From NCBI GenBank assembly GCA_963784935.1, contig CAWATD010000001.1, positions 20,991 through 84,990 of the forward strand: DNA of 64,000 nucleotides. Direction: 5' to 3'. How positions within the stretch are numbered: the stretch's first letter is position 1; every line of letters starts with the position of its first letter. Below are positions 1 through 64,000 of this stretch, in pieces. A model generated the notes under the pieces. That model ran no database searches and had not been told where the DNA came from. It saw nothing but the letters and a program-made list of their open reading frames with translations. Source of the stretch: an uncultured Acidobacteriota bacterium. Lineage in GTDB: Bacteria; Acidobacteriota; Thermoanaerobaculia; UBA5066; Gp7-AA6. Made by a program: the position numbers and the translations under genes.

Positions 1-336
1 TCGCGATCCGCAGGCGCCTCTCGATGCTGTCGGGAAGGTACCGGTCGTCGGAGTCCAGGAAACAGACCCAATTCCCGCGGCTGGCGCGGATGCCGGCATT
101 GCGCGCCGCCTGCGCCCCCCGATTTCGGTCCTGACGAAGCAGTCGAATTCGGGAGTCCTGCCGTGCGATGCCGGCGACGACTTCGGCCGTGCCGTCCGTC
201 GACCCGTCGTCCACGACGATGGCCTCCCATTGCGAGCATCGTCTGCACCCGGAGGCTCTCCAGGGCCGCCCCGACCTTCGAGGCGCGGTTGTAGGCCGGG
301 ATCACGACCGGTGACGAGGGGGTTTTCTTGCTTCAT
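1..336 (-). pseudogene. Glycosyltransferase family 2 (N-terminal part; the gene runs off the left edge), frame broken twice in the first ~110 nt
   Basis: From my own translation (not in the ORF track): minus-strand ATG at 336 gives MKQENPLV. A second frame then reads PVVIPAYNRASKVGAALESLRVQT. A third reads WEAIVVDDGSTDGTAEVVAGIARQDSRIRLLRQDRNRGAQAARNAGIRASRGNWVCFLDSDDRYLP. This is the classic GT-A/GT2 N-terminal signature with a DSD (DxD) motif. Confidence 0.6.
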
Positions 337-351
337 GAATGGTTCCGCGCT

Positions 352-1523
352 TCAGTGCGGCCGCGTCCGACTCGCCGCTCGGATCAGGCCGAGAATCCGA
401 AGCAACTCGGAGCGCTCTCGCTCCCACGAGAACCGGCGCCTCGCCTGCTGCCAGCCCGCCTCGCCCATGCGGAGTCGCAGGCCCGGATCGCTCGCGAGCT
501 CCACCAGCCTGGCTCCCATCGCGGCGCTGTCGCCTTCGTCGACGAGGAATCCGTTCCCGCCATCCGTGACCGCCTCCGGTATGCCGGCATGCCGCGTCGA
601 AACCACGGGAAGGCCGCACGCCATCGCCTCCAGGAGGGCGACCGGCAGGCCTTCTTCGTCTCCGGAGTCCGGCGTCGGTCAGGCTGTGCTGCACGAAGAT
701 GTCGGCTTCCTGTCATAAGACCGCGCACCGACTCGTGCGCGAAGCCCGCCGTGGAGCGTCACCCGGTCCTCGAGGCCGAACGCGCGAACGAACTGGCGCG
801 CGGCGGGCAGAAGGTCTCCCTCCCCGACGTAATCGAGCCGGAGCGTCGGACAATCGAGGGCGGCCCGGCGGAAGGCGTCGAGCGTCAGAATCGGGCCCTT
901 CTTGGCGACCATGCGTCCGACGGCGAGGCATCGGACGACACCCTCGGAAGAGGCCCGCCGTGGCTCTCGAGACGGCACGTCGATCCCGCAGGGAACGACG
1001 TGAATTCGTTCCGCGTCCACTCCGATCGCGACGAGCCTCGCCTTGCTGAACTCGCTGACCGTGATCACGCCGTCCGCCTGGTTGTAGCGGAGATACTCGC
1101 TTGCGCCAACCGGGATCACGCAGCTGCATCGAGACGTCATAGCCATGGGCGTGCCCGAAGAATCGGGCCCCGGCCGCCCGAGCGGCCCCCATCCAGCGCA
1201 GGGACCAATCCAGGTACTCTCCGAGAACCACCGCGACGCCCTGCTCGCGGAGGAAGCGCTCGACTCTGCCCTCCGCATCCATTTCCCTCCGGCCCAACCT
1301 GCGGCCAACGCCCTCGACGACACGGCGAATGAGGGCCCTTCGACGGGGCCTGGTCGAGAAGCAGCTTCGGACCGGGGACCGACCAGTGCCCGCCCAGCGG
1401 GCCGTCCGCCGAGTCCGCCACGACGACGGTTCCGCCCGGAACCAGATCCTGCATGTGCCGTCGGATGAAGGTCTCCGACCGACCTCCGATGACCGGCGCG
1501 AACACGGCGAGCGCTCGAGTCAT
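352..1523 (-). pseudogene. Glycosyltransferase family 1 (GT4-like), split over about 4 frames
   Basis: The pieces are collinear. 1137..1523 gives MTRALAVFAPVIGGRSETFIRRHMQDL. 713..1297 gives FLREQGVAVVLGEYLDW...FFGHAHGYD. 679..1560 gives VITVSEFSKARLVAIGVDAERIHVVPCGID...VGRMVAKKGP. 352..624 gives MACGLPVVSTRHAGIPEAVTDGGNGFLVDEGD (the GT1 C-terminal E-x7-E region). Confidence 0.7.
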
Positions 1524-1708
1524 TCGGGGAGGCTCCTTGCGGCAGCGCCGTGCAGGTCAAGAATCAAAGCCTCGCCGAAGTCTTCTCGCCGACCGTTTCG
1601 GCCCCGGCGGACGGAAGCGAATCGGCCGGGCGAATGTCCCACTCTGGCGCCCAGTAGATCGGGCCCCAGCGGCTCGGGCTCGGAAGAGCGGCCCCTGAGC
1701 CAAAGACG

Positions 1709-2894
1709 TCATGCTCCAAGCACCTCGATCGCGAGAGCGCTGGCGAACTTCTCGCTGCGATCCTTGGGACCGATGTGCACGTTGGCGAAATAGGTTCCGG
1801 CATTGAGCGGCAGCCGCCCCATGTCGCACCGAATGTCCCAGAACCGGGACGTGCTCGGGGAGTTCACGATTCCCTGGATGTGGCTGCTCATGCTCACGAT
1901 CGGGTCCCCGGTATTCGACACGAGCGTCACGCCAATGCCGGCGTCCGAGCTCGGGATCGGAAACGGCGTCTCGATTCGAAACTCGAGAACGAGGGGGTCT
2001 CCGCAGAACATCGAGATCCGCCCTCGCTCACCCCCGAGGCGCAGAACGAACCGGTCGTCCTCCTCGGCGCGCGTCTCGAGCGAGGCGTCGTCGCGCGCCG
2101 GCTGGCCGTACTTGTTGACATAGAGGTCGACGACGTGGTCCGAGGGACCGTCGGCCAGCACCCTTCCCTTGTCGAGGAAAATGCACCGGGTGCACAGCCT
2201 GCGGATCGCCCCCGTGTTGTGGCTGACGAAGAGGATCGTTCGGCCGGATTCCGAAACGCTCTCCAGCTTGCCGAGGCACTTGCGCTGGAACTCGAGGTCC
2301 CCGACGGCCAGGACCTCATCCACGATCATGATCTCCGGCTCGAGGTGCGCCGCGACCGCGAACGCGAGCCGGACGTGCATGCCGCTCGAATAGTGCTTCA
2401 CCGGGGTGTCGATGAACTTCTCCACGCCGGCGAAGGCCACGATCTCGTCGAACTTGCGCTCGATCTCGGCTTTCTTCATCCCCAGGATCGCGCCGTTCAG
2501 GAAGATGTTCTCCCGGCCGCTCAACTCCATGTGGAAGCCGGAGCCGACCTCCAGCAGCGACCCCACGCTCCCGCGAATCTCGGCAAATCCTTCCGTCGGC
2601 TCGGTGATGCGGGAGAGGATCTTCAGGAGCGTGCTCTTCCCTGCCCCGTTGCGGCCGATGAAGCCGACGACTTCGCCGCGCTTGATCTCGGCGTTGATGC
2701 CGCGAATCGCCCAGAGCGTCTCCTCCGTCCCGGCCTCGCTCGAGCGTGCCGCGGCGCCTCAGCCCCTGCAACCGACGCCAGGGGCTCGAGGCCATCCCCG
2801 CGATCGCCTCGCGAAACGTCTTGTACGCCTCCTCCCGGCTTCCGAGGCGGTACTTCTTCCCGAGGTTGTCGAGTTGGATTGCCACGTCGCTCAA
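1709..2894 (-). CDS. wzt: Polysaccharide/O-antigen ABC exporter ATP-binding protein (Wzt/TagH type) with C-terminal extension; one frame break near 2745-2760
   Basis: N-terminus MSDVAIQLDNLGKKYRLG (ORF 2316..2894). In the frame of ORF 1709..2566, extended upstream, I read ETLWAIRGINAEIKRGEVVGFIGRNGAGKSTLLKI (Walker A). The same frame carries YSSGMHVRLAFAVA (ABC signature), IMIVDEVLAVGD (Walker B) and FVSHN (H-loop). A further ~120-aa tail resembles Wzt glycan-binding domains. Confidence 0.85.
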
Positions 2895-2936
2895 GGACCC
2901 TTCCCCGCCGCAAATAGCCCCCGCCCGTCGCGCAGC

Positions 2937-3819
2937 CTAGATGATGTCCGCAAAGGTCCTCTCCACCTTTCGAAAGTAGAACGCCCCACCCACCAGAAGC
3001 ACCACGGTCACGGCAGCGCTCGTCGCGATCACGGAGACCGACACGCCGCCGCTGCCCAGGGCGGCCCAGCGAAAGCCTTCGACGACGCCCGCCATCGGGT
3101 TCAAACCATAGAGCCACTCAGGGATCGACGCCGGCACGAAGCTTGGCCGTGACCCGGCTCGCGGGATAGATCACCGGCGTGACGAATAGCCAGATCTGTG
3201 TGAAGAACGGAACGACATATCGAATGTCCCGGTACTTCACGTTGAGCGCGGAGAACCACATGCCGATGCCCAGCGCCGCGCCCGATGCGAGCAACATGAA
3301 GAGGGGCAGGAGGAGGAACGTGGCCGTGGGCCAGACGTGGTAATAGGCCATCATCGCGACGAGAAAGATGGAGGCAACGCCGAAGTCCACCAGCCCCACG
3401 AGCACCGACGCGATCGGGATGATCAGCCTCGGGAAATAGACCTTGCTGATGAGGTTGGACGAGCCCACCAGGCTCGAGGCCGATTGGCCGAGCCCCTGCG
3501 CGAAAAGGTTCCACGGGAGAAGGCCCGCCAACGAGAACAGTGGATACGGCAGCCCGTTCGAGCCGACGTTGACCATGCGGTCGAAGAAGATCGTGAACAC
3601 GACCACCGTCATGAGCGGCTGCAGGACGGCCCAGGCGACGCCGAGCGCGGTCTGTTTGTAGCGAACTTTCACGTCGCGCCAGACGAGGAAGTAGAGCAGC
3701 TCCCGGTACGCCCAGACCTCTCTCAGCTGCAGCGACGCCCAGCCCCGGGTCGGCTGAATGCGAACCAGCGGAAATCTCGGCGGCAGGCTGCCGCCATGCC
3801 GCACGGCGCTCATTCGCAA
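2937..3819 (-). CDS. wzm: ABC-2 type polysaccharide exporter permease (Wzm); one frame break near 3120-3135
   Basis: ORF 3118..3819 reads ELLYFLVWRDVKVRYKQTALGVAWAVLQPLMTVVVF...SKVYFPRLIIP...NVKYRDIRYVVPFFTQIWLFVTPVIY. ORF 2937..3137 continues it with PEWLYGLNPMAGVVEGFRWAALG. These are typical ABC-2 (Wzm/TagG) motifs. Confidence 0.85.
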
Positions 3820-3828
3820 ACGGCCCTC

Positions 3829-5216
3829 TCAGTGACCCGGGCGAGTCACGCCTTGACGACGTTCGGCATCGCCTGCCGGTAGACACCCGCGGCTGTCGAC
3901 GATGAGCGGCGCATGGCGAAGGACGAGATCGTAGTCGACGGCGGAATGGTCCGTCACGATCACGACGGCATCCTGGGCGGCGAGCAGCTCGGGCGTGAGC
4001 GCTCTCCGACGACAGCGACGCGAGATCCGGCCATGCCCGAGTCCGCGGCACCCGCGGCACATGGGGGTCGTGATAGCTCGACGGCCGCGCCGCGCCGGAG
4101 AAGCGCATCGATGATCTCGAAAGCGGGGCTCTCCCGAGCATCGTCCACGTCCTTCTTGTAGGCCACTCCCAGGATCAGGATCCGGCTCCCCTTGACCGCC
4201 TTGCCCCGCTCGTTCAAGGCATTCTGCAGCTTCTCGACGACGTAGTGCGGCATCTGGACGTTGACCTCGCCGGCGAGCTCGATGAACCTCGCCGTCACTC
4301 CGTACTCGCGCGCCTTCCAGGCGAGATAGAAGGGATCGAGCGGGATGCAGTGGCCCCCGAGCCCCGGGCCCGGGTTGAAGCGCATGAAGCCGAAGGGCTT
4401 TGTCGAGGCGGCGTCCAGGACCTCCCAGACGTCGATGCCCATCTTGTCGAACACCATCTTCAGCTCGTTGACGAGCGCGATGTTGACGGCGCGGAAGATG
4501 TTCTCGACGAGCTTGGTCGCCTCCGCGGTCCGCGCCGTCGATACGCGCACGGTCCGCTCGATCGCGTGGTCGTAGACGGCCTGCGCCAGGTCTCCCGATA
4601 CGGCGTCCACGCCCCCGACCACCTTGGGAATGCTCGAGTGTCGAATGACGGGCGTTGCCCGGGTCCTCGCGCTCCGGCGAGAAGGCGAGGAAGAAGTCCT
4701 CGCCGCATCGCAGGCCCGACTCTTCGAGGATCCCGCGGACGAGCTCGTCCGTCGTGCCGGGATAGGTCGTCGACTCGAGAACGACGAGCTGCCCGCGGCG
4801 CAGGCGCGAGCGGATCTGCCGGACGGTGCTCACGACGAAGCTCATGTCCGGCTCTCGCTGCGGCGTCAGCGGCGTCGGCACGCAGATCAGCAGCACGTCC
4901 GGCTTGCCCAGCTCGGCGAAGTCCGAGGTCGCGCGAAAGAGACCCGGCGCGGTGGCAGCGCTCAGCGCGAGACGCCGGCGAGGTGCTGGATGTAGCTGCG
5001 GCCGGCCCGGAGCGCCTCGATCTTCTCGGGATCGACGTCGAATCCGACGACCGAGAGGCGCTTCTCCGCAAAGGCCATCGCGAGCGGCAAGACCCACGTA
5101 CCCGAGGCCGAGGACCCCGATGACGATCGTCGCGGTCCTCGATCTTCTTCTTGAGCTCGGCGGCGGCGGCGCTGAGAGGTCTCGGAGCTCACCGTCGTGC
5201 TCATCATTACTCGCAT
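3829..5216 (-). pseudogene. Nucleotide-sugar 6-dehydrogenase (UDP-GlcNAc/UDP-ManNAc dehydrogenase, WbpA/TviB/WecC-like), 5 or more frame breaks
   Basis: Collinear fragments across frames: IVIGVLGLGYVGL (Rossmann), [62 protein letters not shown]. Further fragments: [91 protein letters not shown]. Confidence 0.8.
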
Positions 5217-6149: not shown

Positions 6150-9100
6150 CTACGGATTCGACAGCGTGACGCTGTCCAGCCCCGATGTACCGATCAAGGT
6201 GTTGTTGTGACTGGTCAGCGGCAAGCCGACGTAGACGTTGGCGGACATCGTGATCGTGTCGGATCCCACCAGCGTCCAGGTGATCCCGTCCGGCGAGCTG
6301 TACCCGGTGAACGTGTCGGCGTTACGCCCGCTGCGCGTCAGCTTGACCCAGTACGGACCCGCCACCAGAGCGTCCCGCGGTGCCGACACCCGCAGCTCCG
6401 GTGGTGAGCCGGCGCTGAAAGTGCACCCCATTCGAGGGGGTCAGGATCGTCATGGCGAACGTGGAATTGGCCGCCAGCGTCTCGCGAATCATCACGCCGC
6501 TCTTGGCCCACGGATCCGTGTTCTGGATGCTCGCCACGCGCGCGATGATCGTCCCGTCGCCGCTCCATGGCTGGTACACGTAGTGGAACTGATCCGACGT
6601 GCCCCAGATGTCGGTTCCAGAAGCGCTCATCGTGAACGCCCCCGCCGAATAGCTCGCGTTGCCCGCAATACCAGGACCCCCGATGTCCTGATGCACCCAC
6701 GGCGCCGGAAGGCCGCCACCCGGCGCCGGCGTGCGTGTCGGTGTCGCCGTTGGACCGATCGGCGTCGCGGTGCGCGTGGGCGGGACCGTCGGCGTGTTCG
6801 TCGGAGCGATCGGTGTCGCGGTACGCGTCGGCGTGGCGGTCGACGTGTTCGTCGGAGCGATCGGCGTCGCGGTGCGCGTGGGCGTGACCGTCGGCGTCGG
6901 CGTGGCCGTGGCGTCGCGCTCGCCGACGCTGATGCTGTCCAGAGTGCCCGTGCAGAGCAGCGTGTTGTTGTGACTGGTCAGCGGCAAGCCGACGTAGACG
7001 CTGGCGGACATGGTGATCGTGTCGGTTCCCACCAGCGTCCAGGCAATCCCGTCCGGCGAGCTGTACCCGGTAAACACGTTGCCGCTGCGCGTCAGCCTGA
7101 CCCAGTACGGACCTGCCACGAGAGCTCCCGGGGTGCCCACACCCGCAGCTCCGGTGGTGACCCGGCGCTGAAAGTGCACCCCATTCGAAGGGGTCAGTAT
7201 CGTCATGGCGAACGTGGAATTGGCCGCCAGCGTCTCGCGAATCATTACCCCGCTCTTGGCCCACGGATCCGTGTTCTGGATGCTCGCCACCCGCGCGATG
7301 ATCGTCCCGTCGCCGCTCCATGGCTGGTACACGTAGTGGAACTGGTCCGACGTGCCCCAGATGTCGGTTCCAGAAGCGCTCATCGTGAACGCCCCCGCCG
7401 AATAGCTCGCGTTGCCCGCAAAACCAGGACCCCCGACGTCCAGATGCACCCACGGCGCCGGAAGACCCGCCCCCGCCGTCGGCGTGGCTGTCGGCGTCGC
7501 GGTCGGGCCGTTTGAGGTCGGCGTCCTCGTAGGCGTCATCGTCGGCGTCGGCGTCCTGGTGGGAGTCGGCGTCACGGTTGCCGTTCGTGTCGGCGTCGGA
7601 GTCGGGCCCGCCGGGCCGATGGTGACGTTGTCGAACACGGCAGTGCAGAGGACCGTGTTGTTGTGGCTGGTCACGGCCAAACCCACGTAGACGCTGGCGG
7701 ACATGATGATCGTGTCGGATCCCACCAGCGTCCAGGTGACTCCGTCCGGGGAGCTGTACCCGGTAAAAGTGTCGCCGCTGCGCACGAGCTTGACCCAATA
7801 GGGCGCGCTCACGCTCGGGCCCGTCGAGCCGGCGCTCTGATAACCCTTGAGCACACGGCGCTGAAAGCGAACTCCATTGATCGGGGTCAGGATCGTCATG
7901 GCTTGAACGGAGTCGGCTGCCAGGGTGTCGCGCAACATCACGCCGGCCTTGGCCCAGGGATCCGTGTTCTGAATGCTCACGACCCGCGCGATGATCGAGC
8001 CATCCCCACTGAGCGTCTGGTACGCGAAGTTGAACTGATCCGAGGTCGACCAGATGTCGGCTCCCGAAGCCTTGACGGTGAGCGTGCCAGCCTGCGTCAG
8101 GCTGCCCGCCAGCCCGGGGCTGCCGATGTCCCGGTCGGCCCAGGCGGAGGAGGCCGGCGTGTAGGTCGCCGTGTAGGTGGCCGGAGAGGACGTCGCGGTG
8201 ACCGTGTGGTTCTGCGCTCCCCCGTCCGACCAGGAGACCCACTGGTAGCCGCTCTCCGGTGAAGGCGCGTTGACGGAGTTGGCGGAGTTGACGATGACGG
8301 TGCGAACGAAGGGCGTCGTCCCCGCGAAAGTTCCCACCGTCAGGTACAGTCCCGAGGGGCTCGACTGAAACGTCAGGTCCACCGTCTTCGGCTGAATGTT
8401 GACGCTCGTAGTCGCCGAGAGGCCGAGGGAGTCTGTGGCCGTCAGCTGGATCTCGAGGTAGGACGGGTACTCGTGGTCGGGAGCCGAAAACGAGCCGCTC
8501 GCAACTCCCGAGAAAGTCTGGTACGTGTGCAGGTGACAATTCGAGGGGCAGTGGTGGATGAGGACCACCCAATTGAGCGCGCTCGCCGGCAGCACGCCGC
8601 CATCCGGATCGGTCGCCTGGCCCGAGAAGCTGATCGTGTCTCCGACCTTCCAGGTGAAGGAAGACGCGGGCGTCGTGATGGACGGAATCGGAGGCTGGTT
8701 ATCGACGAAGATCTTGATCGGTGCGCTGATCGCAGAGCTGCCGCGCTGGTCGGTGACCTTGAGCCGGGTCGTGTAGGTGCCTTTCGTGGTGTAGACGAAC
8801 GCGGGCTTCTGCAGGGTCGAGTCGTCGAACTGGCCGTCCCCATCGAGATCCCACGCATAGCTCAACGTGTCGCCGGATTGGGCGGGCTTCGATCCGCTCC
8901 CGTCGAAATTCACCGTCAGCGGCGACGGGCCGAACAGGGGTGAGGCCGTCGCGAGGGCATTCAGGCCGTAGACGAAGCGGACGATGTTGCCGCCGTTGAA
9001 GTCGGCGTAGTAGACGTTGCCGTCGGGACCCACATCCAGGAACACGGGGCCCGTCGCCACGCTGGACGCGAACGGGATGACGTTGGCCGGGTTGGGATTG

Positions 9101-10476
9101 CCTCCGGCATCCGGCAGCATCACCCAGACGCAGGCGCGCGAATAGTCCGAGAAGAAGAGCGCGTTCTTGTAGGTCGAGGGATAGTTGCTGCCGCCCGTGT
9201 AGAAGGTGATGCCGGCGACCGAGGAGCTTCCCGTCGGACACCCGTCGGTCGGGAGGACCTGAGCGCGTGGTTGTAGGTCAGCACGGGCAGCGTGACCGTC
9301 TGCGGGCTCTGCGCGTAGAGGGCCTCGCAGATGTTCAGGTTGTCGCCGTCGTAGCTGGGCTGACGCAAGAGGCCTTCGTAACAGGGCCAGCCGAAGTTCG
9401 TGCCGACGGTTGGGTTGGAAAGGTGGTTGATCTCCTCCCAGGTGTTGTAGCCGACGTCGGAGATCCAGAGGTCGTTGGTGCCGGGCTTGATGGTGAACCG
9501 GAAGGGGTTGCGCAGGCCCCACCCCGTGATGCGCTGCGCGTTCACGTCGCCGGACGAGTGGAAGGGATTGTCCGGGGCGCCCGCGCCCGTGGCCGGATCC
9601 AGACGCAGGATCGTGCCGTTCAGGACCCGCGGTTCGCCGGCCGTGCGCAGCACCGACTGGGCGCGCAGGGCCCCGCCCTCGGCTCCCGGAGGAACCTGGT
9701 TGCCGCCCACTGGCACCGGCGGATCTCCGCACGGGTTCTTGGGCGTCGGTGGCGGGCTGCCCTGGGTCCCTCCGAACTGACCGTAGTCGTCGTTGATGAA
9801 GCTCGCGCCATCACCGGCGCTCACATAGAGGTAGCCGTCGGCACCGAAGTTGAGAGAGCCGATTGAGTGGCTCGGGAACTGCTGGCACCAGTCGTTGATC
9901 ACGGAGTGCTCGCTCGCCTTCCAGTCGCTGCCGGTCGCGGTCAGGCGCGACAACCGGCCGCTGATGACGCAGCCGTCCGTATTGGCGCCAGGGGGACTCG
10001 GACACGGGTCGGATGTTCCATCTCCCGGACCCCATTTCGGCGGCGCACCCCCGATGGGCGCGTCGTACGCGTAGAGCACGTAGACGTAGTTGTTGGTCGA
10101 GAAGTTCGGGTCGATCGCGAGTCCCAGAAGGCCCTCGGTCCCAGTTGTTGAAGACCTCTGAGCGCAGGTCCGCGACGACCGTGTAGGTGTTTGTCGTGAT
10201 GTTGGGAAACAGCTTGAGAAGCCCGCTCTTCTCCGCCACCAGCACACGGCCGTCCGGCAGAAACCGCACGACCGTCGGATTGGTCAATCCGGTGAAAACC
10301 ACCGTCTCGGAAAAACCCTGCTGCTTGAAACTGGTGCCGGCCAGCGCTGCCGGCAAGGCGAACGCGAGGGCGAGAAGGGTCGCCCTTCGGGCCAATGGCG
10401 CCAGCACCTCGAGAAGACTGCCAGGCCAGGGTTGTCGCACCGGTTTGACATTCATTGGAGAATTGGAATTCGCCAA
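6150..10476 (-). pseudogene. Giant secreted modular protein B: signal peptide + PQQ-type glucose/sorbosone-dehydrogenase-like propeller + PKD + Ig-like + 3 ConA-like (DUF1349/LamG-like) modules joined by Pro/Thr linkers; 3 frame breaks (about 10138, 9270, 6390)
   Basis: ORFs 9811..10476, 9120..10247, 6322..9732 and 6150..6431 are collinear with paralogue A. Signal peptide: LLALAFALPAALAG. Propeller: FLPDGRVLVAEKSGLL, LLGLAIDPNF, GADGYLYVSAGDG, NDLWISDVG. PKD: LTVNFDGSGS...YAWDLDGDGQFDDS. Module core: SGTDIWGTSDQFHYVYQPWSGDGTIIARVASIQNTDPWAKSGVMIRE...GYSSPDGIAWTLVG. Confidence 0.8.
6153..8150 (-). repeat. Tandem coding repeat: 3 ConA-like modules plus PT linkers (period about 650-710 bp) in gene B
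   Basis: Module starts recur as AWADRDIGSPGLAG, APWVHLDVGGPGFAG and [15 protein letters not shown]. The DNA of the internal modules is near-identical to the modules in gene A. Confidence 0.85.
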
Positions 10477-10560
10477 TCTACCCCTGATACGTGCCCCGCC
10501 GACATCAGCCCATGGGTCGACCTTGAGGTGAGAAAACGACCTAGGGCTTTACCCTGAGTC
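10477..10560 (-). promoter_or_regulatory. Conserved upstream leader/promoter region of giant gene B (a copy of the element upstream of A)
   Basis: The minus strand reads ...cctaggtcgttttctcacctcaaggtcgacccatgggctgatgtcggcggggc...gtagattg...ATG. This aligns with the segment at 15541-15617. GC content is locally reduced. Confidence 0.4.
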
Positions 10561-10622
10561 CCGTCCCCGACAACGCCGATGCGATCGGCTGCCAAGAACC
10601 CGCGCCGACCGGACGAGCGGGC

Positions 10623-38725: not shown

Positions 38726-38729
38726 GCCA

Positions 38730-52762: not shown

Positions 52763-52790
52763 CCGCCGCCTTTTCCCGTAAACTTCTCTC

Positions 52791-54853: not shown

Positions 54854-54880
54854 AGCGGGCCCGAGGTTAAGCTCCCATCC

Positions 54881-56264
54881 GTGATTCCGACGAAACCCGT
54901 CACCCAGTACCTCTCCCGCCACGCGGAGCCCGAGTCCGCGCTCGCCGAGCGGCTGGAGGGCTCCTTCGGCCACGTCCTCGTGATCCCGGCCTACGGCGAG
55001 GGACGAAGCCTCTTCGACACGCTCGGCTCCGCGCCGAAGGGGCCGCGGGGAGACACGCTGATCGTCGTCGTCTTCAACGCACGCGCCGACTCTCCCGCGC
55101 GCGTCCACGAGGTCAACCGGGCCTCGAGCGCCCGCCTGCGCGAGGCCGCGACGTCCTCGCGCGAGCTCGGCCAGGCGCCGCTCGTCTCGGCGCTCGCCTA
55201 CCCCAATGGAACGATCGTCGTGATCGACCGCGCGCTGCCCGGGACACTACCTGCCCGAGGGCCAGGGCGTGGGGCTCGCGCGCAAGATCGGCAACGACTT
55301 CGCCCTGCAGCTGCACGCGGCCGGGCGGGTCGGCTCCCCCTGGATTCACAACACGGACGCCGACACGCTGCTCGCCAACGACTACTTCGACCAGACCGAG
55401 CCGGTCCCGGCCGAAGGCAACGCCGCGGCGCTCTACTTCTTCGAACACCGATTCAGCGACGAGGACGAGAATCTCGCGCTCGCGGCGCGGCTCTACGAGA
55501 TCTCGCTGCGCTACTACGTGCTCGGCCTCGCGTGGGCCGGCTCGCCCTACGCCTACCAGGCCATGGGAAGCTGCATCGCCATCCGCCCCGAGGCCTACGC
55601 CGCGGTGCGGGGCTTTCCGCGCAAGAACGCCGCCGAGGACTTCTACGTCCTCGACAAGCTCGCCAAGGCGGGCTCGATCGCGCGGCTGGCCGGAACGCCC
55701 CTTCTGCTCGAGGGCCGCATCTCCGACCGCGTCCCTTTCGGCACGGGCAAGGCGCTCTCGCAGCTGCTCGGAAAGAAGGGAGCACTCGCGGGTTTCCGGC
55801 TCTACCACCCGGCGGTCTTCGCGCACCTCGGCGCCTGGCTGCGCGCCCTGGCAGCGGTCGCCCGGTCCGGCGGACGGATCGAGACCGCGATCGAGGAGCT
55901 GCCGCGCGGCAACCCGTTCTTCAAGGCGGATGTTCTTGTCGAGTCGCTCGAAAAGATGGGGGCTTTTACGGCCATGCGCGAGGCGGTTGCGCGCTCCGGC
56001 GACGCGGCGACGATGCTGCGCCACTTCCACACCTGGTTCGATGCGTTCCGGACCCTGAAGCTCATCCGGGCGCTGCAAACGGGAGGCCTGCCCGCTCTCC
56101 CGTGGCGCGAGGCCCTCGCCGAGGCCCCGTTCACGGGGCTTTCCGCCTCGACGCAGGACGATCCCGAGCCCCTGCGCCGCGCGCTCGCGGCCGAAGAACG
56201 CAAGCTCGCAGAGAGTCCGGCGGGCGTGCCCGCCGCACTCGAGGCCGAAGAGCCCGAAGGCTAA
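54881..56264 (+). CDS. GT-A-fold (family-2-like) glycosyltransferase-like protein of unknown function; one frame break near 55235-55245
   Basis: Motifs: HVLVIPAYGEG, LIVVVFNARADS, GVGLARKIGNDFAL, NTDADTLL (DxD), KNAAEDFYVLDKL. A ~200-aa helical C-terminal extension follows. Confidence 0.5.
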
Positions 56265-56488
56265 TTCATCGAGCAGGAGCCCGGGCCTCGCGGGTCGCCG
56301 CACGAGCCGCAGCCTCCCGCTGGCTCCGACGCGCTCGACGACGTCCCGCCGGAGCCGACCGCGAAGACCGAGAGGAGCTTCTCGAGCTTCGCGCCCTGGC
56401 ACGCCGGGCAGCGCGGCTTCGCGTCGCCGAGGACGAACTCCTCGAATCGCTTTGCGCAGTCGCGGCACCGGTATTCGAAGAGCGGCAT
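56261..56488 (-). CDS. FmdB-family (CxxC_CxxC_SSSS) zinc-ribbon putative regulatory protein
   Basis: It reads MPLFEYRCRDCAKRFEEFVLGDAKPRCPACQGAKLEKLLS...GGCGSCG. I take the start at the internal Met of ORF 56261..56611. Confidence 0.8.
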   Translation of the reverse strand: MPLFEYRCRDCAKRFEEFVLGDAKPRCPACQGAKLEKLLSVFAVGSGGTSSSASEPAGGCGSCGDPRGPGSCSMN

Positions 56489-56508
56489 GGGTTGGATTCT
56501 ACCGCCTC

Positions 56509-59500
56509 TCAGAACGGATAGCCGATCGAAAGGAAGATGCGTCCCGTTTGCTTGACCGACCCGGACGCCAGAGGCGAGCACTTGTCCAGGTTGTTGTTTT
56601 CGACCGAGCACGGCTTCCCCTGGGCGTCCTGCGTGCGGGTTACGAGGAAGTCCACGGTCTGCTGCGGCAGGGGTCGTCCCACTTCCAGCCGGAGCGGACC
56701 GATCGGCGTCATGTAGTGGATGCCGAGACCGATCGACTGCCGCAATCCCGTCGGCTTGATCTGCTGGTCGGGCTTTGGAATCCCGGTCGTACGGTCCGCC
56801 GTCTCCAGCCGGAAATTGATGTCACCCACGGTCGCCCACACCTGGGCAACGTCGTAGAAGATCGAGATGCCGAGATTCCCCAGGATCGGGAAGCGGTACT
56901 CGAGGCTCCAGGCCATGAAGCCATTACCGCCGATGATTCGGGGGCCCGGGCTGCAGTCGTACCGGTTCGCGTCCGGCGCGCCGGGATACGTTTGCGCGCA
57001 CGTGCCCTTGCCGCTGCCCTGGTACGTCGCCTGCGTGTTGTAGTCCACGGTCGAGCCTGGAATGCCCTCCAGGTTCGTGTCGAACCCGCGGGCGGTCGAG
57101 GATCCTCCCGCGAAGTACTTCTCCGCGATCGGCACCGTATCGACGGCGCCTTGCGGGTAGATTCCCCCGGCGCGAAACGAGGCGCCGAGGACGCCGCCAA
57201 GAACGCTCCAGAAGTGCGCCGCCTGACCGGACACCTTCCCGTACCAGGCGTCGGCGTTCAGGAATGGGAAGGCATAGCCGCCGGCCACCGAGAGGTAATA
57301 ACCCTTGTGCGGGTCGAGCACGTCGTCGCGCCGGTCGTAGAGGAGACTCGGCCCGATCGCGGACTGCCGGATCGGGAAGGCCGAGAGCGGGTACTTCTCG
57401 CGCACGATCGTCGAGAGGTCCTCCGGGTTCGTCGGCGCAATGTACTGATACGAGTAGCGCAGCCCGACCCGCAGATTTCCGAAGAGCTTGACCGACTCGA
57501 AGAATACGCCGTACCGGTTGACGTCGACGTCCTGGATGGGCTCGCGGCTGGCGAAGATCGCGGCCGTCAAGGGGACTTCGGTGTTGAAGAGGTATGGCTC
57601 GAGAAAGTTTGCGACGGCGTAGCCGCGTCCCGACACCGGCGCGTACTGGACTTCAAACGAGACCGACTGCATGCGGCCGAAGAGATTCCGGTACGAGATC
57701 CCGGCCGTGGCGAACGGGTCGTTCGGGTTGGTCGCGCCGGGGGCGTACTGATATCCGACGCCGTACAGGAGCGAGAGCCGCCGCGCCTCGGTCAGGTCGA
57801 TGTCCACCGTGTGCTCCTGGTTGTCCGGGTTGGCCGGCTGCGGCTTGACCTCGATCGATCGAAAGACCCCCGTGCGAGCCAGGTTTCTCTGGGTGTCCGA
57901 GATCTTCTCTTCCGAATACGGATCGCCTTCCTTCCAGGCCACCTGGCGCAGGATCCGCTTGGGCTCGGTCAGGGCGTTGCCGCGGACGATGGTCTTGCCG
58001 AAGAAGGTGCGCATGCCCTCGTCCACCGTGTACACGACGTCCGCTTTCGTCTTGTCGGGCGAGAGGGTCCATCGGTCCCGCACCCCCGCCTCCCGCCAGC
58101 CCGTGTTCCAGTAGCGGTTGGTCAGCGCCGCCGCATCCTGCCGCACGGCGCTCGGATTGAACGGCTCGCCCACGCGCACGCTCAGGAGCGCGTCGAGTTC
58201 GGCCTCTTCGAGATGCTCGGCACCCTCGATCAGCCGGTTCGCCACGAACGTGCGCGGCCCCTCGACGATCGTGAACGCGACGTCCAGGCGGTCCGGCTTC
58301 GCGTCCGGCGTCACCGCGGGCTTCTCGACGCGCGCGTCGATCCAGCCCCGCGTCTGGTAATACCCGAGGATGCCGTCGGCGTCCTTCTGGAGCTCCCCGT
58401 CGATGAGGTACCCGTTCTGCAGCAGCGGAAGCCCCTTCTCGCGCGTCACGATCAGGTCGCGCAGGGTCTCCTCGGACACCGAGGAGTTGCCCGTGAATGC
58501 GATCCGCTCGACCGAATACTTCCCGCCCTCGTCGACGGTCACCCGCACCGTCACGGGATCCTGGCCCTGCGTCTTCGCCGCGACCGCCGCCCGGTAGCGC
58601 CCCTTGCGCTGCAGGCCCTCCCGCGTCGTATCCGCCCACTGCTCGAGGAGGTCCGCGTCGAACCCCTGCGCGTCGAGCAGGTCGAGGAACTCCTTGCGGA
58701 CCCGCTTCTCCTTGATCCCCGTGGCCTCGATCGCGAACCGCGGCCCGACGGCGATCCGATAGACGGGTCGGACCGTGCCCTCGTCGGTCGGCTCGGAGGC
58801 GATGAGCTCGACCGAGGCCTTGAAGTGCCCCTCCTCGAGAAGGAACTTGCGCAGGCGCTCGGCGCTCGTGCGGGCGCGCGCCTCCTCGTAGGGCTTGCCG
58901 ATCTTCAGCTTCATCTTCGCGGCGAGCGCGTCGGGGGTGAAGGGCTCGATCGGGCCGTCGAAGAACGGCGCCGCCGTTGTCGCCCGCTCCCCCTCGGCGA
59001 TCCGGTAGACCACTTGCGCGGAGAAACTCGCCGGGTCGAAGGTGACCTCCGGGTCCACGGCCGCGCGGATGTACCCGTCCGCCGCGAGTCGCCGCTCGAG
59101 GGCGCTGGCCCCTTCGGCGAGGGCCGTCGCGTTGAAGGGCCCCCGCTCCTGGAGCGCGACCGCCCGTCTCATGTCTTCGCGGGACAGGGCCGACTTTCCG
59201 TCGAACTCGATGCCGGCGACCCGGTAGGACCGCCACAGGTGGATGGTCACCGCGACGGCGCCCTCGGGAATCGGGCTCGCGACGACCAGGATTTCCGAGA
59301 AATCGAGCGTCGCGAAGAGATTCTGGATCGTCGCGCCGGTGTCGTCCTCGGTCAGGGGGCGTCCGATCCGAAATGCGACGAGGCTCCCGATCTCGCCCGA
59401 ATCCGCGGGACCGTCGCAGGTGTAGGTGATCGACTCGACCGTCAGGCCCAGCAGGTCGGGGTGGATCTCGGCAGCCGTCGCACTGCCGGAAACGGCGAGC

Positions 59501-59541
59501 AGCAGGGCCGCGGTGAGCCGCGCCAGGGCGTTTTGCTTCAC
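56509..59541 (-). CDS. bamA: Outer-membrane protein assembly factor BamA (POTRA repeats + Omp85 barrel)
   Basis: It is 1010 aa starting from GTG 59541 (VKQNALARLTAALLLAVSGSATAAE). Five POTRA-like units are present (for example VERIAFTGNSSVSEETLRDLI and KTIVRGNALTEPKRILRQV). The barrel carries FAGGSSTARGF and ends GRIFLSIGYPF. The upstream 850 codons of ORF 56509..62085 are out of frame with tamB and are rejected. Confidence 0.9.
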   Translation of the reverse strand: MKQNALARLTAALLLAVSGSATAAEIHPDLLGLTVESITYTCDGPADSGEIGSLVAFRIGRPLTEDDTGATIQNLFATLDFSEILVVASPIPEGAVAVTIHLWRSYRVAGIEFDGKSALSREDMRRAVALQERGPFNATALAEGASALERRLAADGYIRAAVDPEVTFDPASFSAQVVYRIAEGERATTAAPFFDGPIEPFTPDALAAKMKLKIGKPYEEARARTSAERLRKFLLEEGHFKASVELIASEPTDEGTVRPVYRIAVGPRFAIEATGIKEKRVRKEFLDLLDAQGFDADLLEQWADTTREGLQRKGRYRAAVAAKTQGQDPVTVRVTVDEGGKYSVERIAFTGNSSVSEETLRDLIVTREKGLPLLQNGYLIDGELQKDADGILGYYQTRGWIDARVEKPAVTPDAKPDRLDVAFTIVEGPRTFVANRLIEGAEHLEEAELDALLSVRVGEPFNPSAVRQDAAALTNRYWNTGWREAGVRDRWTLSPDKTKADVVYTVDEGMRTFFGKTIVRGNALTEPKRILRQVAWKEGDPYSEEKISDTQRNLARTGVFRSIEVKPQPANPDNQEHTVDIDLTEARRLSLLYGVGYQYAPGATNPNDPFATAGISYRNLFGRMQSVSFEVQYAPVSGRGYAVANFLEPYLFNTEVPLTAAIFASREPIQDVDVNRYGVFFESVKLFGNLRVGLRYSYQYIAPTNPEDLSTIVREKYPLSAFPIRQSAIGPSLLYDRRDDVLDPHKGYYLSVAGGYAFPFLNADAWYGKVSGQAAHFWSVLGGVLGASFRAGGIYPQGAVDTVPIAEKYFAGGSSTARGFDTNLEGIPGSTVDYNTQATYQGSGKGTCAQTYPGAPDANRYDCSPGPRIIGGNGFMAWSLEYRFPILGNLGISIFYDVAQVWATVGDINFRLETADRTTGIPKPDQQIKPTGLRQSIGLGIHYMTPIGPLRLEVGRPLPQQTVDFLVTRTQDAQGKPCSVENNNLDKCSPLASGSVKQTGRIFLSIGYPF

Positions 59542-62500
59542 AGCCGCTGGCGCCGCCGCACGCTGATCGAGAGGATGCCGTTCTCGTCCCGGATCATCTG
59601 CACCAGGATCGTGTTCGAGGCCTGCCACTCCACGCGGACGATGGGCTCCTTGCTCGAATCGAGGGCGATCGAGGAAGACACCGCCAGATCCTGCGTGATC
59701 TGCTTGCCGATGGTCGAGCGGACCGTCGTGATCTGGCTGCCGGTGAAGACCGGCTCGATCTGAAACCGGTCGAGCTTGAAGATGCGCCGGGTCTCCGCGC
59801 GCAGGCCCCCGGTCACCGCTCCCGCGACGGCGCCGCCGGCGGCCGAGACCAGCTGGTTCGCCGTGTCGGTCGGGTTGCGCGTGTCCGGCGGCGACCCCGA
59901 GAGGAGCAGCCCGAGGATCGCGTCGTTGGCGAGCGGCGGATCGGAGGTGAAGTTTGCCGAGATGCGCGGCCAGGTCCCGGCGAGGAGGACCACGAGGTTG
60001 TATCCCTTGACCTCCGCCCGCGCGCGCACGTCCACGAACGGCGCGATGCGCGCCGCGTTCGAGAACGTGATCGTTCCGGCCTCGATCTCGTAGCGGATGT
60101 CGCTGAACACGACGCGCCCGCCCTCGTCGAGAACGACCGATCCGAGCACGACCGGGTCGGCCAGCGTCCCGCGGGCCCGCAGGTCCACAGTGCCCGACAG
60201 GCGCGCCAGGTTGTTGCGGACCTCCAGCGCCGCCGCCGACACGATCCGCACCTCCAGCGTCGTCCGCTCCTTCCAGGGTTCCCGCGCCGCGAGCGCGCCC
60301 GTGGGGCGGCCGCGCCCGAGAAAATCCGACAGCGTGACTTCGACGTCCTTCGAGTACGTGCCGCGCAGGAGCGTGATCTCGCCGCGCAGCTGGTTGCCGG
60401 CCTCGCTGCCCGTCGCGACGAGATCGGCGTCCACCGTCAGCCGCAGGGCCGGGATGGCGCGCACCGAGATGCGCCGGCCCTGCAGGGTGAGCCGGAAGTC
60501 CTTGACCCCGGCGCCGGCGAAGCGGAATCCGCCCGCGACGAACGCTTCGCCGTCCGCGACCCTGGCGCGCAGTCCTTCGATTTCGCCGGAGGACCCCACC
60601 AGGCGCACGCCGCCTTCGATGTCCTCGAAGGAATAGCCCGCCATGCGGTACCGGCCGTCCTCGATCCGGACGAGGCCGTTCCAGTTGGGAGATTCGGCGG
60701 GGCCGGAGACCGCGACGTCCACGACGAAGCGGCCGGCCAGGCCGAGATCCGGCGCCGCCAGAGCGAGCAACGACGCGTCGGCCGACCCCGTGACCCTTCC
60801 CTCGATCGCCGGCTTCTCGCCCGTGAGGTCCACCGCTCCGCGCATCCGCAGATCCACGCCTTCGCCCACGGCGTGCACGTCGCCGAGCGCAATCCGCCCG
60901 TTCGCGACGGACACGGCAACGTCCCCCTCGCTGTGCACGAGCGCGGGCCGGTCGCGGGCGTCCAGGCGCGCCTCGGTCATGACGAACTCGCCGGCGGGTC
61001 TTTCCCCCTCGGCCGAGGGCAGCCGGACCCGGCCGCGTGCTGCAAGCGCGCCGCCATCGCCCGCGGGCAGGGCGGCCGGCGTGAAGAGCAGGAGGGCCGC
61101 GAGATCGCGGACGTCGACGCCCACGTCGAGCGCCACGGGCGTGGCGCCGGCGTCTCCCTTCGCCGTGAGCGTCCAGCGGCCCGGCACCGTGACGGCTCCG
61201 TCCACCTCGCCGTGGGCCACGTGCAGCGAAAGGCGGGGCGACAACGCCTCGGAGATCTCGTGGCCGTAGAACGTCGCCTCCGACAGCGACGCGGACGCCG
61301 TCAGGTCCGGCCGGCTGAACGCGCCGGAGCCCGCGAGCTCGAACGATACGCGGCCCGATACGTCCTGGCGGATGCCGGCGAGCGCGTCGAGAGCCTGGAG
61401 CGGGACGCCGTCGCCGGCGGCCCGGGCCTCGAAGGTTTTCTCCCGGTACGCGATCGCAATCCGGCCGCCGAGCATGCCGCCGCCGATGTCGGCCCGGACG
61501 TCGTCGAGCTCGAAGAGCCCCGGACGGAGGCCCATCTTTCCCGTGATGCGCGACACCTTCTGGCCCCAGAGGACCGCGTCGTCGAGCGCCGCGGCGCCGC
61601 CGCCCGTGACGGAATTCGGAGGACTGCCGACGAGCGGAAAGCTCCCCGTCAGCCTGCCTTCGATCGGGAAGTCGAGATCGAGGTACTCGAGGAAACGGGA
61701 CACCGGGTAGTCCTTGGCCGTCAGGGCGAAGTCGAGGGTGGGCCGCATCGGGTCCTTGCGGTACCGGACCGTGCCCTCGAGCGAGAGGGAAGCCCGATCG
61801 TCGTAGACGCGCAGGGGATGGAAGACGAACGCGCCGTCGTGCATGTCCGTCTGGCCGAGCACGCTGCCGAAGAAGACGCCGGCATATCGGGCGTTCTCCG
61901 CAGAGAACTTCGCGGAGACGTCCGGGTCGCCCCAGGATTTGGCGATGTGCCCCTCGATCTCGCCGCTGCCGCCCAGACCGAGCGGCGTCGCAACGTCGCC
62001 GGCGGCGGCGACGAAGTTCTGGAAGATGCGGTCGACCTCGACGAGATCGCGCGAGCGCAGCCGGAAGTCGAAGTCCGGAAGCCACTCGCCGATCTTGAGC
62101 CCTCCCGTGGCCTCGAGGGTCGAGGCCGCGAACCGGAAGGGAGTGCCCTCGAACCCGATGCGGCCGTCCACGACGGCAAGGTCGCCGCCGCCGCCGACCG
62201 GAATCCCGAAGCGGCCCGGGACGAGCGAAGCCGCGGGCCCGGGCTCGACCTGGAGGCGCGCAGCGCCGCTGGACCGGCCGATGCCGCCCTCGGACCAGCG
62301 CAGCGTCGCCGAGAGCGCCGCCGAGCCGGAAAGCCCGGTCCCCGGCAGGTGGATGTCGCCGAAGAAACGCTCGACCGAGATGCCGCGCCCGTCGAGCGAC
62401 AGGGTCATCGGCTGCGGGCGCCCCCCGCCGGCGAGATTCTCGATGCGATAGATGCCGGTGACCTCGCCGCCCGCGTACCGCGCCTTTTCGATGCGCCCGA

Positions 62501-63479
62501 CCAGGGCTTCCGGCCCGGCCAGCACGGCGGCCTCGAAGCCTTCGATCGGAAAGCCGTTGGCGTCGAGCACGGGCACGCTCAACCGGCCCGTGATCCGGAA
62601 GCCGCCCTCGAGCGGCAGCAGGATCTCGGCCTCCACCCGCGCGTCGCCGGCGAAACCGAGGGGCGAGTGAAATACCTTCTCGACCTCGGCCACGCGGAGC
62701 TCGCCCGTAGCCCGCAACAGAATTTTGGCGTTCTTCGGGTCCTCGACGGACCCCGACGCGCGCAGCTCGCCGAAATCTCCCACGATCCGCAGGGACTCGA
62801 TCTGCAGGCCCGACGCGGGGCCGGCGCTGAATCCGAGGTCCACGCCGAAGACGAGCGGCTCGTCGCCGCGCAGCTGCAGGGTCGTCTTTCGGCAGGCGAG
62901 GGATCCGCGGTAGCGGTTGCCCGACAGAATGGCGAGCTCGGCCGCGAAGCTCTCGAGGCGCCCGTCGATGTCCGACTTGCGCCCGTCGAACTCGAAGGTG
63001 CCCTTCTGCACGACGAGCTCCCCGATCTTCACGGACAGCCCGCCCTTCGACGCGGGACGCAAGAGGCCCGGCGGAAGGTTCCAGGTCCCGTCGGTAAACT
63101 GGACCAGCGAGATCTTCGGATGCACGGCGCGCACGCGCCCGAAGCGCAGCTCGCCGCCGGTGACCGAAACGCCACCGCCGATCGTCAGCTCTTCGGCCTC
63201 GAGCAGCGGACCCTCCGGCGCGCGCGGGTCGTTGCCCACGCGGACATCGGCCAGGTGCACCGACGGCGGGAAGATCTGGAAATCCACCTGCCGGAAGCTC
63301 ACCGGCCGCTGCAGGAGCTCCGAGAGTCGCTTTTCCGAAACGCCCTGGAACAGGGACTGGAACCGATCGGAGCTCCAGATCGCGTAGCCGGCGAGCGCGA
63401 GGAAGACGACGACGACGAGAAAGAGCCGGGACGTCGAGAGATGCTGCGCCTCGTGCGGCCCCTCATCCCCCCGGCGCAT
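59538..63479 (-). CDS. tamB: TamB/AsmA-like translocation-and-assembly-module protein (DUF490 C-terminus)
   Basis: The ORF is intact at 1313 aa. It has an N-terminal anchor (LFLVVVVFLALAGYAIW), a long beta-rich repetitive body, and the C-terminus FTSDPPLANDAILGLLLSG...RFQIEPV...VRVEWQASN. It overlaps the bamA start by 4 nt (GTGA). Confidence 0.85.
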   Translation of the reverse strand: MRRGDEGPHEAQHLSTSRLFLVVVVFLALAGYAIWSSDRFQSLFQGVSEKRLSELLQRPVSFRQVDFQIFPPSVHLADVRVGNDPRAPEGPLLEAEELTIGGGVSVTGGELRFGRVRAVHPKISLVQFTDGTWNLPPGLLRPASKGGLSVKIGELVVQKGTFEFDGRKSDIDGRLESFAAELAILSGNRYRGSLACRKTTLQLRGDEPLVFGVDLGFSAGPASGLQIESLRIVGDFGELRASGSVEDPKNAKILLRATGELRVAEVEKVFHSPLGFAGDARVEAEILLPLEGGFRITGRLSVPVLDANGFPIEGFEAAVLAGPEALVGRIEKARYAGGEVTGIYRIENLAGGGRPQPMTLSLDGRGISVERFFGDIHLPGTGLSGSAALSATLRWSEGGIGRSSGAARLQVEPGPAASLVPGRFGIPVGGGGDLAVVDGRIGFEGTPFRFAASTLEATGGLKIGEWLPDFDFRLRSRDLVEVDRIFQNFVAAAGDVATPLGLGGSGEIEGHIAKSWGDPDVSAKFSAENARYAGVFFGSVLGQTDMHDGAFVFHPLRVYDDRASLSLEGTVRYRKDPMRPTLDFALTAKDYPVSRFLEYLDLDFPIEGRLTGSFPLVGSPPNSVTGGGAAALDDAVLWGQKVSRITGKMGLRPGLFELDDVRADIGGGMLGGRIAIAYREKTFEARAAGDGVPLQALDALAGIRQDVSGRVSFELAGSGAFSRPDLTASASLSEATFYGHEISEALSPRLSLHVAHGEVDGAVTVPGRWTLTAKGDAGATPVALDVGVDVRDLAALLLFTPAALPAGDGGALAARGRVRLPSAEGERPAGEFVMTEARLDARDRPALVHSEGDVAVSVANGRIALGDVHAVGEGVDLRMRGAVDLTGEKPAIEGRVTGSADASLLALAAPDLGLAGRFVVDVAVSGPAESPNWNGLVRIEDGRYRMAGYSFEDIEGGVRLVGSSGEIEGLRARVADGEAFVAGGFRFAGAGVKDFRLTLQGRRISVRAIPALRLTVDADLVATGSEAGNQLRGEITLLRGTYSKDVEVTLSDFLGRGRPTGALAAREPWKERTTLEVRIVSAAALEVRNNLARLSGTVDLRARGTLADPVVLGSVVLDEGGRVVFSDIRYEIEAGTITFSNAARIAPFVDVRARAEVKGYNLVVLLAGTWPRISANFTSDPPLANDAILGLLLSGSPPDTRNPTDTANQLVSAAGGAVAGAVTGGLRAETRRIFKLDRFQIEPVFTGSQITTVRSTIGKQITQDLAVSSSIALDSSKEPIVRVEWQASNTILVQMIRDENGILSISVRRRQRL

Positions 63480-63485
63480 GCGGAC

Positions 63486-64000
63486 CTAGATTCCCCAGGA
63501 GAGCTTCCCGGCGAGCTGTTCGAAGTGATCGGACTCGGCGGGGCGCAGCAGCGTCACCCAGGAAGCACTCGACTTCACGTCGACCGGGCTGCCGGCGAGC
63601 ACCGGAAATCCCTCCTGGCCGTCGAGGGTCAGATACACGCCGCTGTCGCGCGACTCCGGCCCGAGGACCCGCACGCGGATCCGCGTGGAGGCCGGGACGA
63701 CGAGGGGCCGCAGCCCGAGCGAGTGCGGGCAGATCGGCGTGATGACGATCGCGGCCAGGCCCAGGTGCAGAATCGGGCCTCCCGCCGACAGGTTGTATGC
63801 CGTCGAGCCGGTCGGCGTCGAAACGATGACGCCGTCGGCCCGGAACTCCGCCACCGGCCGCCCGTCGAGCGCGACGATGAACGTCGAGATGCGGGCCAGC
63901 GCCTCGCGATTCAGGACCGCATCGTTCAAGACACGGTACTTCCCATGGTGCGGTCCGCGCGAGATGGACACGTCCATCCGGCGGCGCCGATCCTCGCGGA
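63486..64000 (-). CDS. nadK: NAD kinase (C-terminal part; the gene continues beyond the right edge)
   Basis: It reads VLNDAVLN...FRADGVIVSTPTGSTAYNLSAGGPILHLGLAAIVITPICPHSL. This is the NadK GDG-downstream conserved core. Confidence 0.85.
   Translation of the reverse strand, partial: REDRRRRMDVSISRGPHHGKYRVLNDAVLNREALARISTFIVALDGRPVAEFRADGVIVSTPTGSTAYNLSAGGPILHLGLAAIVITPICPHSLGLRPLVVPASTRIRVRVLGPESRDSGVYLTLDGQEGFPVLAGSPVDVKSSASWVTLLRPAESDHFEQLAGKLSWGI

Follow-up and report, generated by a model that had tools for sequence, protein, structure and literature searches.

Clustered single-base frame breaks in exopolysaccharide and efflux loci of an uncultured Acidobacteriota genome: probable long-read consensus errors rather than gene decay

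Introduction

Metagenome-assembled genomes (MAGs) obtained only from Nanopore reads are known to carry single-base indels that fragment conserved genes, the problem addressed by the IDEEL test, with the literature stressing homopolymer indels and low coverage and with soil Nanopore assemblies being badly affected (PMC9262707, PMC13087279, PMC12313526). In Nanopore soil data, metaFlye assemblies were found to contain only about 57% full-length proteins (PMC13087279), and near-finished R10.4 MAGs need about 40-fold coverage (PMC9262707). This study concerns the distribution and origin of reading-frame breaks in a stretch of 64,000 nucleotides, hereafter the window, from an uncultured Acidobacteriota bacterium of the Thermoanaerobaculia (assembly GCA_963784935.1, contig CAWATD010000001.1 or C1, positions 20991-84990), whose genome comprises 3.52 Mb in 6 contigs with 68% GC and is rated 89.8% complete. 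The window, which carries exopolysaccharide (EPS) and efflux loci, resembles Nanopore-only MAGs in the fragmentation of conserved genes by single-base indels and in belonging to a contiguous assembly below full completeness, and its relatives come from metaFlye and Medaka without short-read polishing. However, its breaks are almost only insertions and are not linked to homopolymers, and it is further unlike the described Nanopore errors in a bias of the extra bases to sites beside the codon third base and in strong patchiness.

Many frameshifted genes with several lesions per gene are also a feature of pseudogene-rich genomes undergoing reductive decay, such as those of Mycobacterium leprae and host-restricted Salmonella. 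In true decay, deletions are at least as frequent as insertions and are accompanied by insertion sequences, nonsense codons, larger deletions and an elevated divergence; none of these hallmarks is seen in the window. In phase-variable contingency loci, each gene switches by slipped-strand mispairing at a single repeat, either a homopolymer or a short tandem repeat. Such loci share with the window a concentration of frameshifts in capsule/EPS and surface genes, but in the window a gene can have as many as 10 sites, and most of them are not in repeats. Phase variation was rejected, as the sites mostly lack a simple-sequence repeat and the inserted bases are often unlike both neighbours.

Distribution of the frame breaks

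Frame breaks in the window were confirmed to be real in the sequence and strongly clustered. The analysis was based on the sequence, its relatives and statistics, and employed three independent lines, since a high-GC genome has many spurious open reading frames (ORFs). These lines were coding-potential segmentation, Pfam searches on ORF fragments and frameshift-aware alignment. Coding potential was assessed with a three-periodic 4th-order Markov model trained on the same genome and seven-state Viterbi segmentation; an earlier codon-usage segmentation was too noisy, and the Markov version performed better, still with false flips (47135; 7451-7603; 12545-12694). For alignment, a purpose-written protein-versus-DNA aligner permitting frameshifts of one base in either direction was used with intact ORFs from syntenic DNA of the same-genus genomes G006, G008, G010 and G017, with the paralogous copy of a giant gene and with database homologues of a 548-aa protein as references.

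By alignment to intact homologues, at least 63 frame breaks could be placed in the window, with about 41 of them in 1-28 kb, 22 in 28-56.3 kb and none in either 38.3-47.6 kb or 56.3-64.0 kb. Addition of truncated Pfam matches (GT2, GT4) and of coding-potential switches (18973, 26041) brings the total for 1-28 kb to about 47 or more, so that the roughly 40 breaks estimated for this region in a preliminary description of the window were a fair or slightly low count. The absence of breaks from the two blocks, also reported there, is upheld by the alignments: every gene of 38.3-47.6 kb aligns to G006 and G017 references without internal frameshift, the coding-potential flip at 47135 being rejected as a false positive by homology, while BamA (1010 aa) matches its relatives end to end without stops and TamB (1315 aa) shows no frameshift against any of four references. 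The coding model likewise places numerous same-strand frame switches in 1-28 kb and in the genes for ADOP permeases 2 and 3 (ADOP2, ADOP3), and no substantial ones in the two blocks. Calculated with 56 events, per-gene homogeneity is rejected (chi-square 132.9, 31 degrees of freedom, p = 1.4e-14), and the probability of finding zero events in both clean blocks at the window mean rate is 3.5e-7.

The damage is local: some genes have as many as 4-6 breaks per kb, and the adjoining 9 kb has none. In ADOP2, five events fall inside 140 nt with more than 1 kb of clean sequence on either side. The earlier picture of riddled accessory loci and a pristine core is only loosely right, as the giant accessory genes show the lowest break rates within the dense zone (0.2-0.7 per kb), whereas the most heavily broken genes include ADOP3 (3.7 per kb), which is conserved and syntenic, and the 548-aa gene (4.3 per kb), which is conserved widely. 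Intactness of cpsB and of the luxR-like gene inside the dense zone was borne out, with their domains whole in single ORFs. Broken genes that had not been listed before include those for the ABC ATPase, ADOP permease 1, a 120-aa protein, a ubiquitin-like protein and a GT-A-like protein.

Character of the breaks and the case against gene decay

With good references, essentially all breaks in the window are single additional bases, of which there are at least 60 against 1-3 missing ones. A few "missing" calls obtained from weaker references are ORF-boundary effects or stem from insertions in G017 itself. At each site examined by nucleotide alignment with two to four relatives, the relatives show a one-base gap. 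No in-frame stop was found in any true-frame alignment of window genes. Frame-corrected identity is ordinary, as seen in the UDP-glucose dehydrogenase gene (8 breaks, 73%) and in ADOP3 (10 breaks, 70% to G006 and 84% to G017), clean neighbour genes having 66-89% identity.

These properties bear directly on genuine decay of the EPS and efflux genes, one of the alternatives raised in the preliminary description, under which the extra bases would be fixed mutations. It would be compatible with the inclusion of polysaccharide and efflux loci, which are often dispensable, in the dense patches and with the adjacency of broken genes to the intact cpsB and luxR-like genes. However, bacterial mutation is deletion-biased, and the ratio of at least 60 insertions to 1-3 deletions runs the other way; nonsense codons are lacking; genes with 7-10 breaks are no more divergent from G006 and G017 than their intact neighbours; and three insertions in the 548-aa gene restore the frame within about 100 nt. 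Housekeeping damage in the window extends to folD, central-metabolism and housekeeping genes are affected elsewhere in the genome, and a different species from a similar type of assembly displays a matching mode at other sites. Decay was rejected on the combined grounds of almost exclusively +1 lesions, absence of stops, normal identity, genome-wide occurrence and different sites in G017, and is regarded as very improbable.

The preliminary description had leaned towards sequencing or assembly error for the breaks it could inspect, some of them clearly in short homopolymers, with low coverage, strain heterogeneity and decay kept as alternatives. Error as the origin is strongly supported by the present data, but its homopolymer basis is not. 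The folD break was reproduced as an extra T (GAAACTCC vs GAAAC-CC), and the extra A that had been put at about 10138 was located at 10135 (CGAGGG vs CGGGG). In contrast, the A6 run at 50832, thought to contain a break, is identical in relatives, and an extra G lies about 17 nt downstream. The check for homopolymer enrichment that had been proposed revealed no enrichment of runs of 4, or of 5 and longer, near breaks; same-base ties make up 11% of usable events vs 27% in simulated random insertions, and many inserted bases are unlike both neighbours (GA-GA to GACGA, CG-GG to CGTGG, AC-CC to ACTCC).

No dominant motif emerged at the breaks from a search that also covered CGGN quadruplets and possible methylation motifs. 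CGG occurs near 74.5% of events vs 67.7% of controls, and even the best 5-mers are found at only 7-14% of sites, with weak enrichment of TCGCT and CCGGG. The same figures argue against decoding of the sites by the organism, through programmed +1 frameshifting or quadruplet codons such as CGGN, since such sites would be expected to share a motif. That all events shift the frame in one direction (+1) would suit decoding, yet orthologues in four relatives are without the extra base at every site examined and G017 has its breaks at other sites than the window, so that its probability is negligible.

Breaks elsewhere in the genome and in related assemblies

Across the whole 3.5-Mb genome, the coding model yields 590 candidate breaks, 75% of which are of the +1 type. 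Eight -1 calls were sampled and inspected by eye; no fewer than four proved to be junctions between genes, where the join brings a new Met and N-terminus, and one more is placed in repeat-rich sequence. Five +1 calls were sampled at random elsewhere in the genome, and four of them gave end-to-end matches to equivalog families after a single join, namely pyruvate:ferredoxin oxidoreductase (2-1167 of 1167), RimO (2-432 of 432), KdpB and LigD, while the fifth gave a weak cytochrome match only. Thus, core genes are broken too. Candidate breaks are overdispersed, with a variance over mean of 3.1 in 5-kb bins and 55% of events in the top 10% of bins, and the excess of pairs of breaks, 5-7 fold at distances below 800 nt, is down to 1.8 fold at 3-6 kb and has disappeared by about 13 kb.

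The closest relative, G017 (MFD02809.bin.3.107), and G006 (MFD00822.bin.1.116) both belong to the Microflora Danica long-read catalogue, which was built from Nanopore reads with metaFlye nano-hq and one Medaka round, without short-read polishing (PMC12313526). The comparison with related genomes suggested in the preliminary description was made with G006 and G010 proteins as common references for the window genome and G017. The extra-base mode recurs in G017 (contig C13:1-60000), with about 19 extra vs 3 missing bases by hand count; its breaks do not recur in the same places, being found in the esterase, ATPase1 and ATPase2 genes and not in ADOP3 or the EPS genes. Break positions are therefore specific to the assembly and not intrinsic to the genes. 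As a separate observation, the G017 contig begins within the EPS locus, at window position 20390.

Assemblies of the genus with 30 contigs or fewer are often only 57-84% complete; over the whole genus table, completeness spans 57% to 98% for very contiguous assemblies (2-30 contigs) and 85% to 96% for fragmented short-read ones. The low completeness of contiguous assemblies fits what is typical of frameshift-laden long-read MAGs, and many long-read MAGs of the clade are probably rated as less complete than they are because of frameshift errors. A scan of public metagenome contigs found no contig of the same species (best 74% amino-acid identity), and no exact-protein record was found for BamA.

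A further reading is that the extra bases are real DNA, produced by patchwise, insertion-biased, non-homopolymer +1 mutation in this Thermoanaerobaculia lineage and independently in G017, with inactivation of EPS, efflux and some core genes only just begun. Such a process is considered highly improbable. Taken with the relatives, the sequence indicates that the frame breaks are almost certainly an assembly artefact, and the broken genes are probably intact in the organism.

Codon position of the extra bases and proposed origin of the patches

The position of the extra bases within codons was analysed with 37 uncrowded events, for each of which all single-base deletions that best restore the alignment were listed, and with 1780 random insertions simulated in clean genes of the window as a control. 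In 27 of the 37 events (73%), the best set comprised a third-position base and the next base, the two being different and interchangeable, as compared to 43% in the simulation (p = 2.4e-4). After removal of same-base ties, the proportion was 27 of 33 against an expected 60% (p = 0.006). A third-position bias with a different base suggests that strain heterogeneity, one of the alternatives offered in the preliminary description, is the best fit among them.

The breaks are thus best read as consensus errors of a long-read-only, most probably Nanopore, assembly, most likely doubled single-nucleotide polymorphisms (SNPs) between strains, and not as mutations of the organism (probability about 0.85). 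In the proposed mechanism, each break would be a single spurious extra base from the consensus. Co-assembled strains would differ by a mostly synonymous third-position SNP, and the consensus would write both alleles side by side, adding one base to the frame. Break density would then track local strain polymorphism, patchy on a 0.1-6 kb scale, and blocks where the sampled strains are identical would come out clean. SNP doubling would account for the lack of deletions and mismatches and for the ADOP2 burst flanked by clean sequence. That the patchiness corresponds to strain-polymorphic tracts is probable, at a lesser degree of confidence than the artefact itself.

The principal competitor is that random consensus errors track local low read depth, with no special part for strain SNPs; depth would fall through chance over distances of a read length, or in segments that only some of the population carries. 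The clustering scale of about 1-6 kb equals typical read lengths, clusters in G017 lie in different genes from those of the window, as sample-specific depth predicts, and the literature ties lower coding density to lower coverage in the Microflora Danica data (PMC12313526) and shows that indel rates drop with coverage (PMC9262707). However, low depth should give deletions and mismatches, whereas almost only insertions are seen here and protein identity in the dense genes is normal. Five events in 140 nt of ADOP2 with clean flanks are hard to obtain from depth alone, and the preference of insertions for different-base sites adjacent to the third position exceeds the random expectation. The codon-position result favours doubling of strain SNPs over random low-depth error, which appears unlikely.

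Several points weigh against SNP doubling in a Nanopore consensus. The third-position test gives indirect evidence from 37 events; the platform of this genome is inferred from its relatives and assembly statistics; and an insertion-only mode is unlike the commonly described Nanopore pattern of homopolymer indels. A literature search found no description of SNP doubling or of an insertion bias. There is also one clear missing base, at 9267 in giant gene B in comparison with its paralogue A, where B is without an A that is present at 14351 (AACCAC-GCGC vs AACCACAGCGC) and where the GSDH Pfam match in gene B ends exactly. The mechanism of SNP doubling is likewise inferred.

Other candidate causes of the patchiness were tried and rejected. 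GC content is only weakly correlated with the breaks genome-wide (Spearman -0.14), and in the window the 548-aa gene with 71% GC is dense while the giant genes with 65% GC are sparse. Mis-mapping between paralogues does not apply, as the genes with the highest break density lack any further copy of 75% identity or more in the genome and the repeated giant genes have few breaks. Accessory status fails as a cause as well: synteny with G006 or G017 is seen for ADOP3, ADOP2 and the genes for UDP-glucose dehydrogenase and Wzc, the 548-aa gene is conserved widely, and the accessory giant genes break least. Local depth and local strain polymorphism are thereby left as the candidate causes.

Consequences for the use of the assembly

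The assembly seems to serve as reference genome of its GTDB species (one genome per species), and the present findings amount to a data-quality warning. Calls for EPS, efflux and some core genes will look like fragments or pseudogenes, by which pseudogene counts, pangenome presence/absence calls and metabolic reconstructions would be misled, and global scores such as 89.8% completeness mask severe local damage. The combination of +1 events only, absence of stops and a different base beside the codon third position could serve as a flag for artefacts that requires no reads. If SNP doubling is true, this signature would also locate strain-polymorphic tracts. It is evenly balanced whether the patches, though errors, faithfully show where surface and efflux loci have hotspots of polymorphism or recombination among strains.

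Map of affected and intact genes

The locations of affected and intact genes and the evidence for them are compiled in Table 1.

Table 1. Location of frame breaks and of intact features in the window (window coordinates; a dot marks features without a single strand)
Feature	Position	Strand	State or evidence
GT2, GT4, Wzt, Wzm, UDP-glucose dehydrogenase, dense patch	1..5162	-	alignment to G006 orthologues; Pfam split over frames
Wzt, extra base	2718	-	G006 orthologue alignment
Wzm, extra bases	3111, 3769	-	G006 orthologue alignment
UDP-glucose dehydrogenase, extra bases	3885, 3997, 4076, 4635, 4963, 4976, 5088, 5128	-	G006 orthologue alignment
Giant paralogous genes B and A, low break rate	6156..15555	-	MAFFT A vs B, paralogue alignment, GSDH Pfam coordinates
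Giant gene B, extra bases	6372, 10135	-	paralogue alignment
Giant gene B, missing base	9267	-	MAFFT vs paralogue A
Giant gene A, extra base	15083	-	paralogue alignment
luxR-like regulator, intact	15621..16346	-	GerE and receiver domains in single ORF
Conserved 548-aa hypothetical protein	16385..18024	-	extra bases 16977, 17136, 17221, 17240, 17505, 17626, 17753
cpsB, intact	18034..18834	-	Pfam CpsB_CapC positions 2-233 of 234, one ORF
Wzc-like tyrosine kinase	18881..21123	-	extra bases 19176, 19711, 20360, 20373, 20887, 21014; G006 orthologue alignment
Outer-membrane protein gene	21994..23503	-	events 22531, 22655, 22788, 22837, 22992, 23140, 23171, 23451
Wzy-like gene	within 23354..27355	+	breaks 23454, 23788
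24.8-25.6 kb gene	within 23354..27355	-	breaks 24937, 25330
TonB-C gene	within 23354..27355	-	break 26833; coding-potential switch at 26041
folD	27686..28701	+	one extra T at ~27866-27870, GAAACTCC vs GAAAC-CC
ABC ATPase and ADOP permeases 1, 2	31898..38270	+	G006 and G017 agree
ABC ATPase, extra base	32382	+	
ADOP permease 1, extra base	32877	+	
ADOP permease 2, extra bases	36846, 36895, 36941, 36969, 36985, 38162	+	
Clean block: msrB, sigma-54 response regulator, histidine kinase, two ADOP permeases	38300..47600	.	no break
ADOP permease 3	47700..50371	-	ten extra bases: 48060, 48154, 48245, 48285, 48787, 49319, 49347, 49411, 49523, 49674
Isolated extra bases	50382..56249	.	two to four references agree for each
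120-aa gene, extra base	50592	-	
Xaa-Pro-dipeptidase-like gene, extra base	~50849		
Ubiquitin-like gene, extra base	~54230		
GT-A-like gene, extra base	~55240		
Clean block: bamA, tamB, start of next gene	56300..64000	-	no break

In the dense patch at the beginning of the window, Pfam matches on ORF fragments are divided among frames, with those of GT2 and GT4 truncated and each of these two genes split further. For UDP-glucose dehydrogenase, UDPG_MGDP_dh_N is divided between two ORFs (positions 13-48 and positions 60-167), and the central domain is found in another ORF together with positions 1-42 of the C-domain.

Giant genes A and B have 90% nucleotide identity by MAFFT, and GSDH positions 1-72 and 139-263 of gene A fall in different ORFs. 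The two copies also differ by a compensated pair of one-base indels (6910/6922 vs 11991/12004), 13 nt apart and recoding four residues; this pair is ambiguous, and it could not be told whether it represents an error in one copy or a real difference. In one repeated module shared by both genes (7451-7603, 12545-12694), the coding model favours another frame while the main ORF is open, probably a sign of unusual codon usage there rather than of a break.

When the gene at 16385-18024 was joined in frame and used as a query, 548-aa homologues were found to span 98% of its length, and six references gave seven identical events, all of the extra-base type and without stops. Three of these (17136/17221/17240) were missed by the coding model because the frame is restored so quickly. 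Homologues of 540-550 aa are numerous in Thermoanaerobaculia and in soil metagenomes, and no Pfam domain is present in the family; a 747-aa homologue (P0035) bears NusG and KOW domains, hence a NusG-like partner may be functionally linked.

In the Wzc gene, Pfam GNVR and P-loop pieces are located in different ORFs, and the coding-potential switch at 18973 suggests one further break. The outer-membrane protein gene was aligned to a G017 ORF at 89% identity, and the coding potential of the window switches at matching places. At the boundary between this gene and Wza (21156-21960), G006 has one 529-aa open frame across both (window 21156-22631), and Pfam recognizes a complete small Wza (Poly_export and SLBB) in 21156-22025. 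References for 23354-27355 are weaker, with 39-76% identity and partly from G017. In folD, the NCBIfam FolD match of the main ORF begins only at profile position 21.

For ADOP3, the G006 and G017 references concur, nucleotide alignments agree with them and coding potential recovers 9 of the 10 breaks. At the start of the esterase gene (28700-28800), alignment to G006 and G017 is poor, and shifts are called at 28747, 28754 and 28799.

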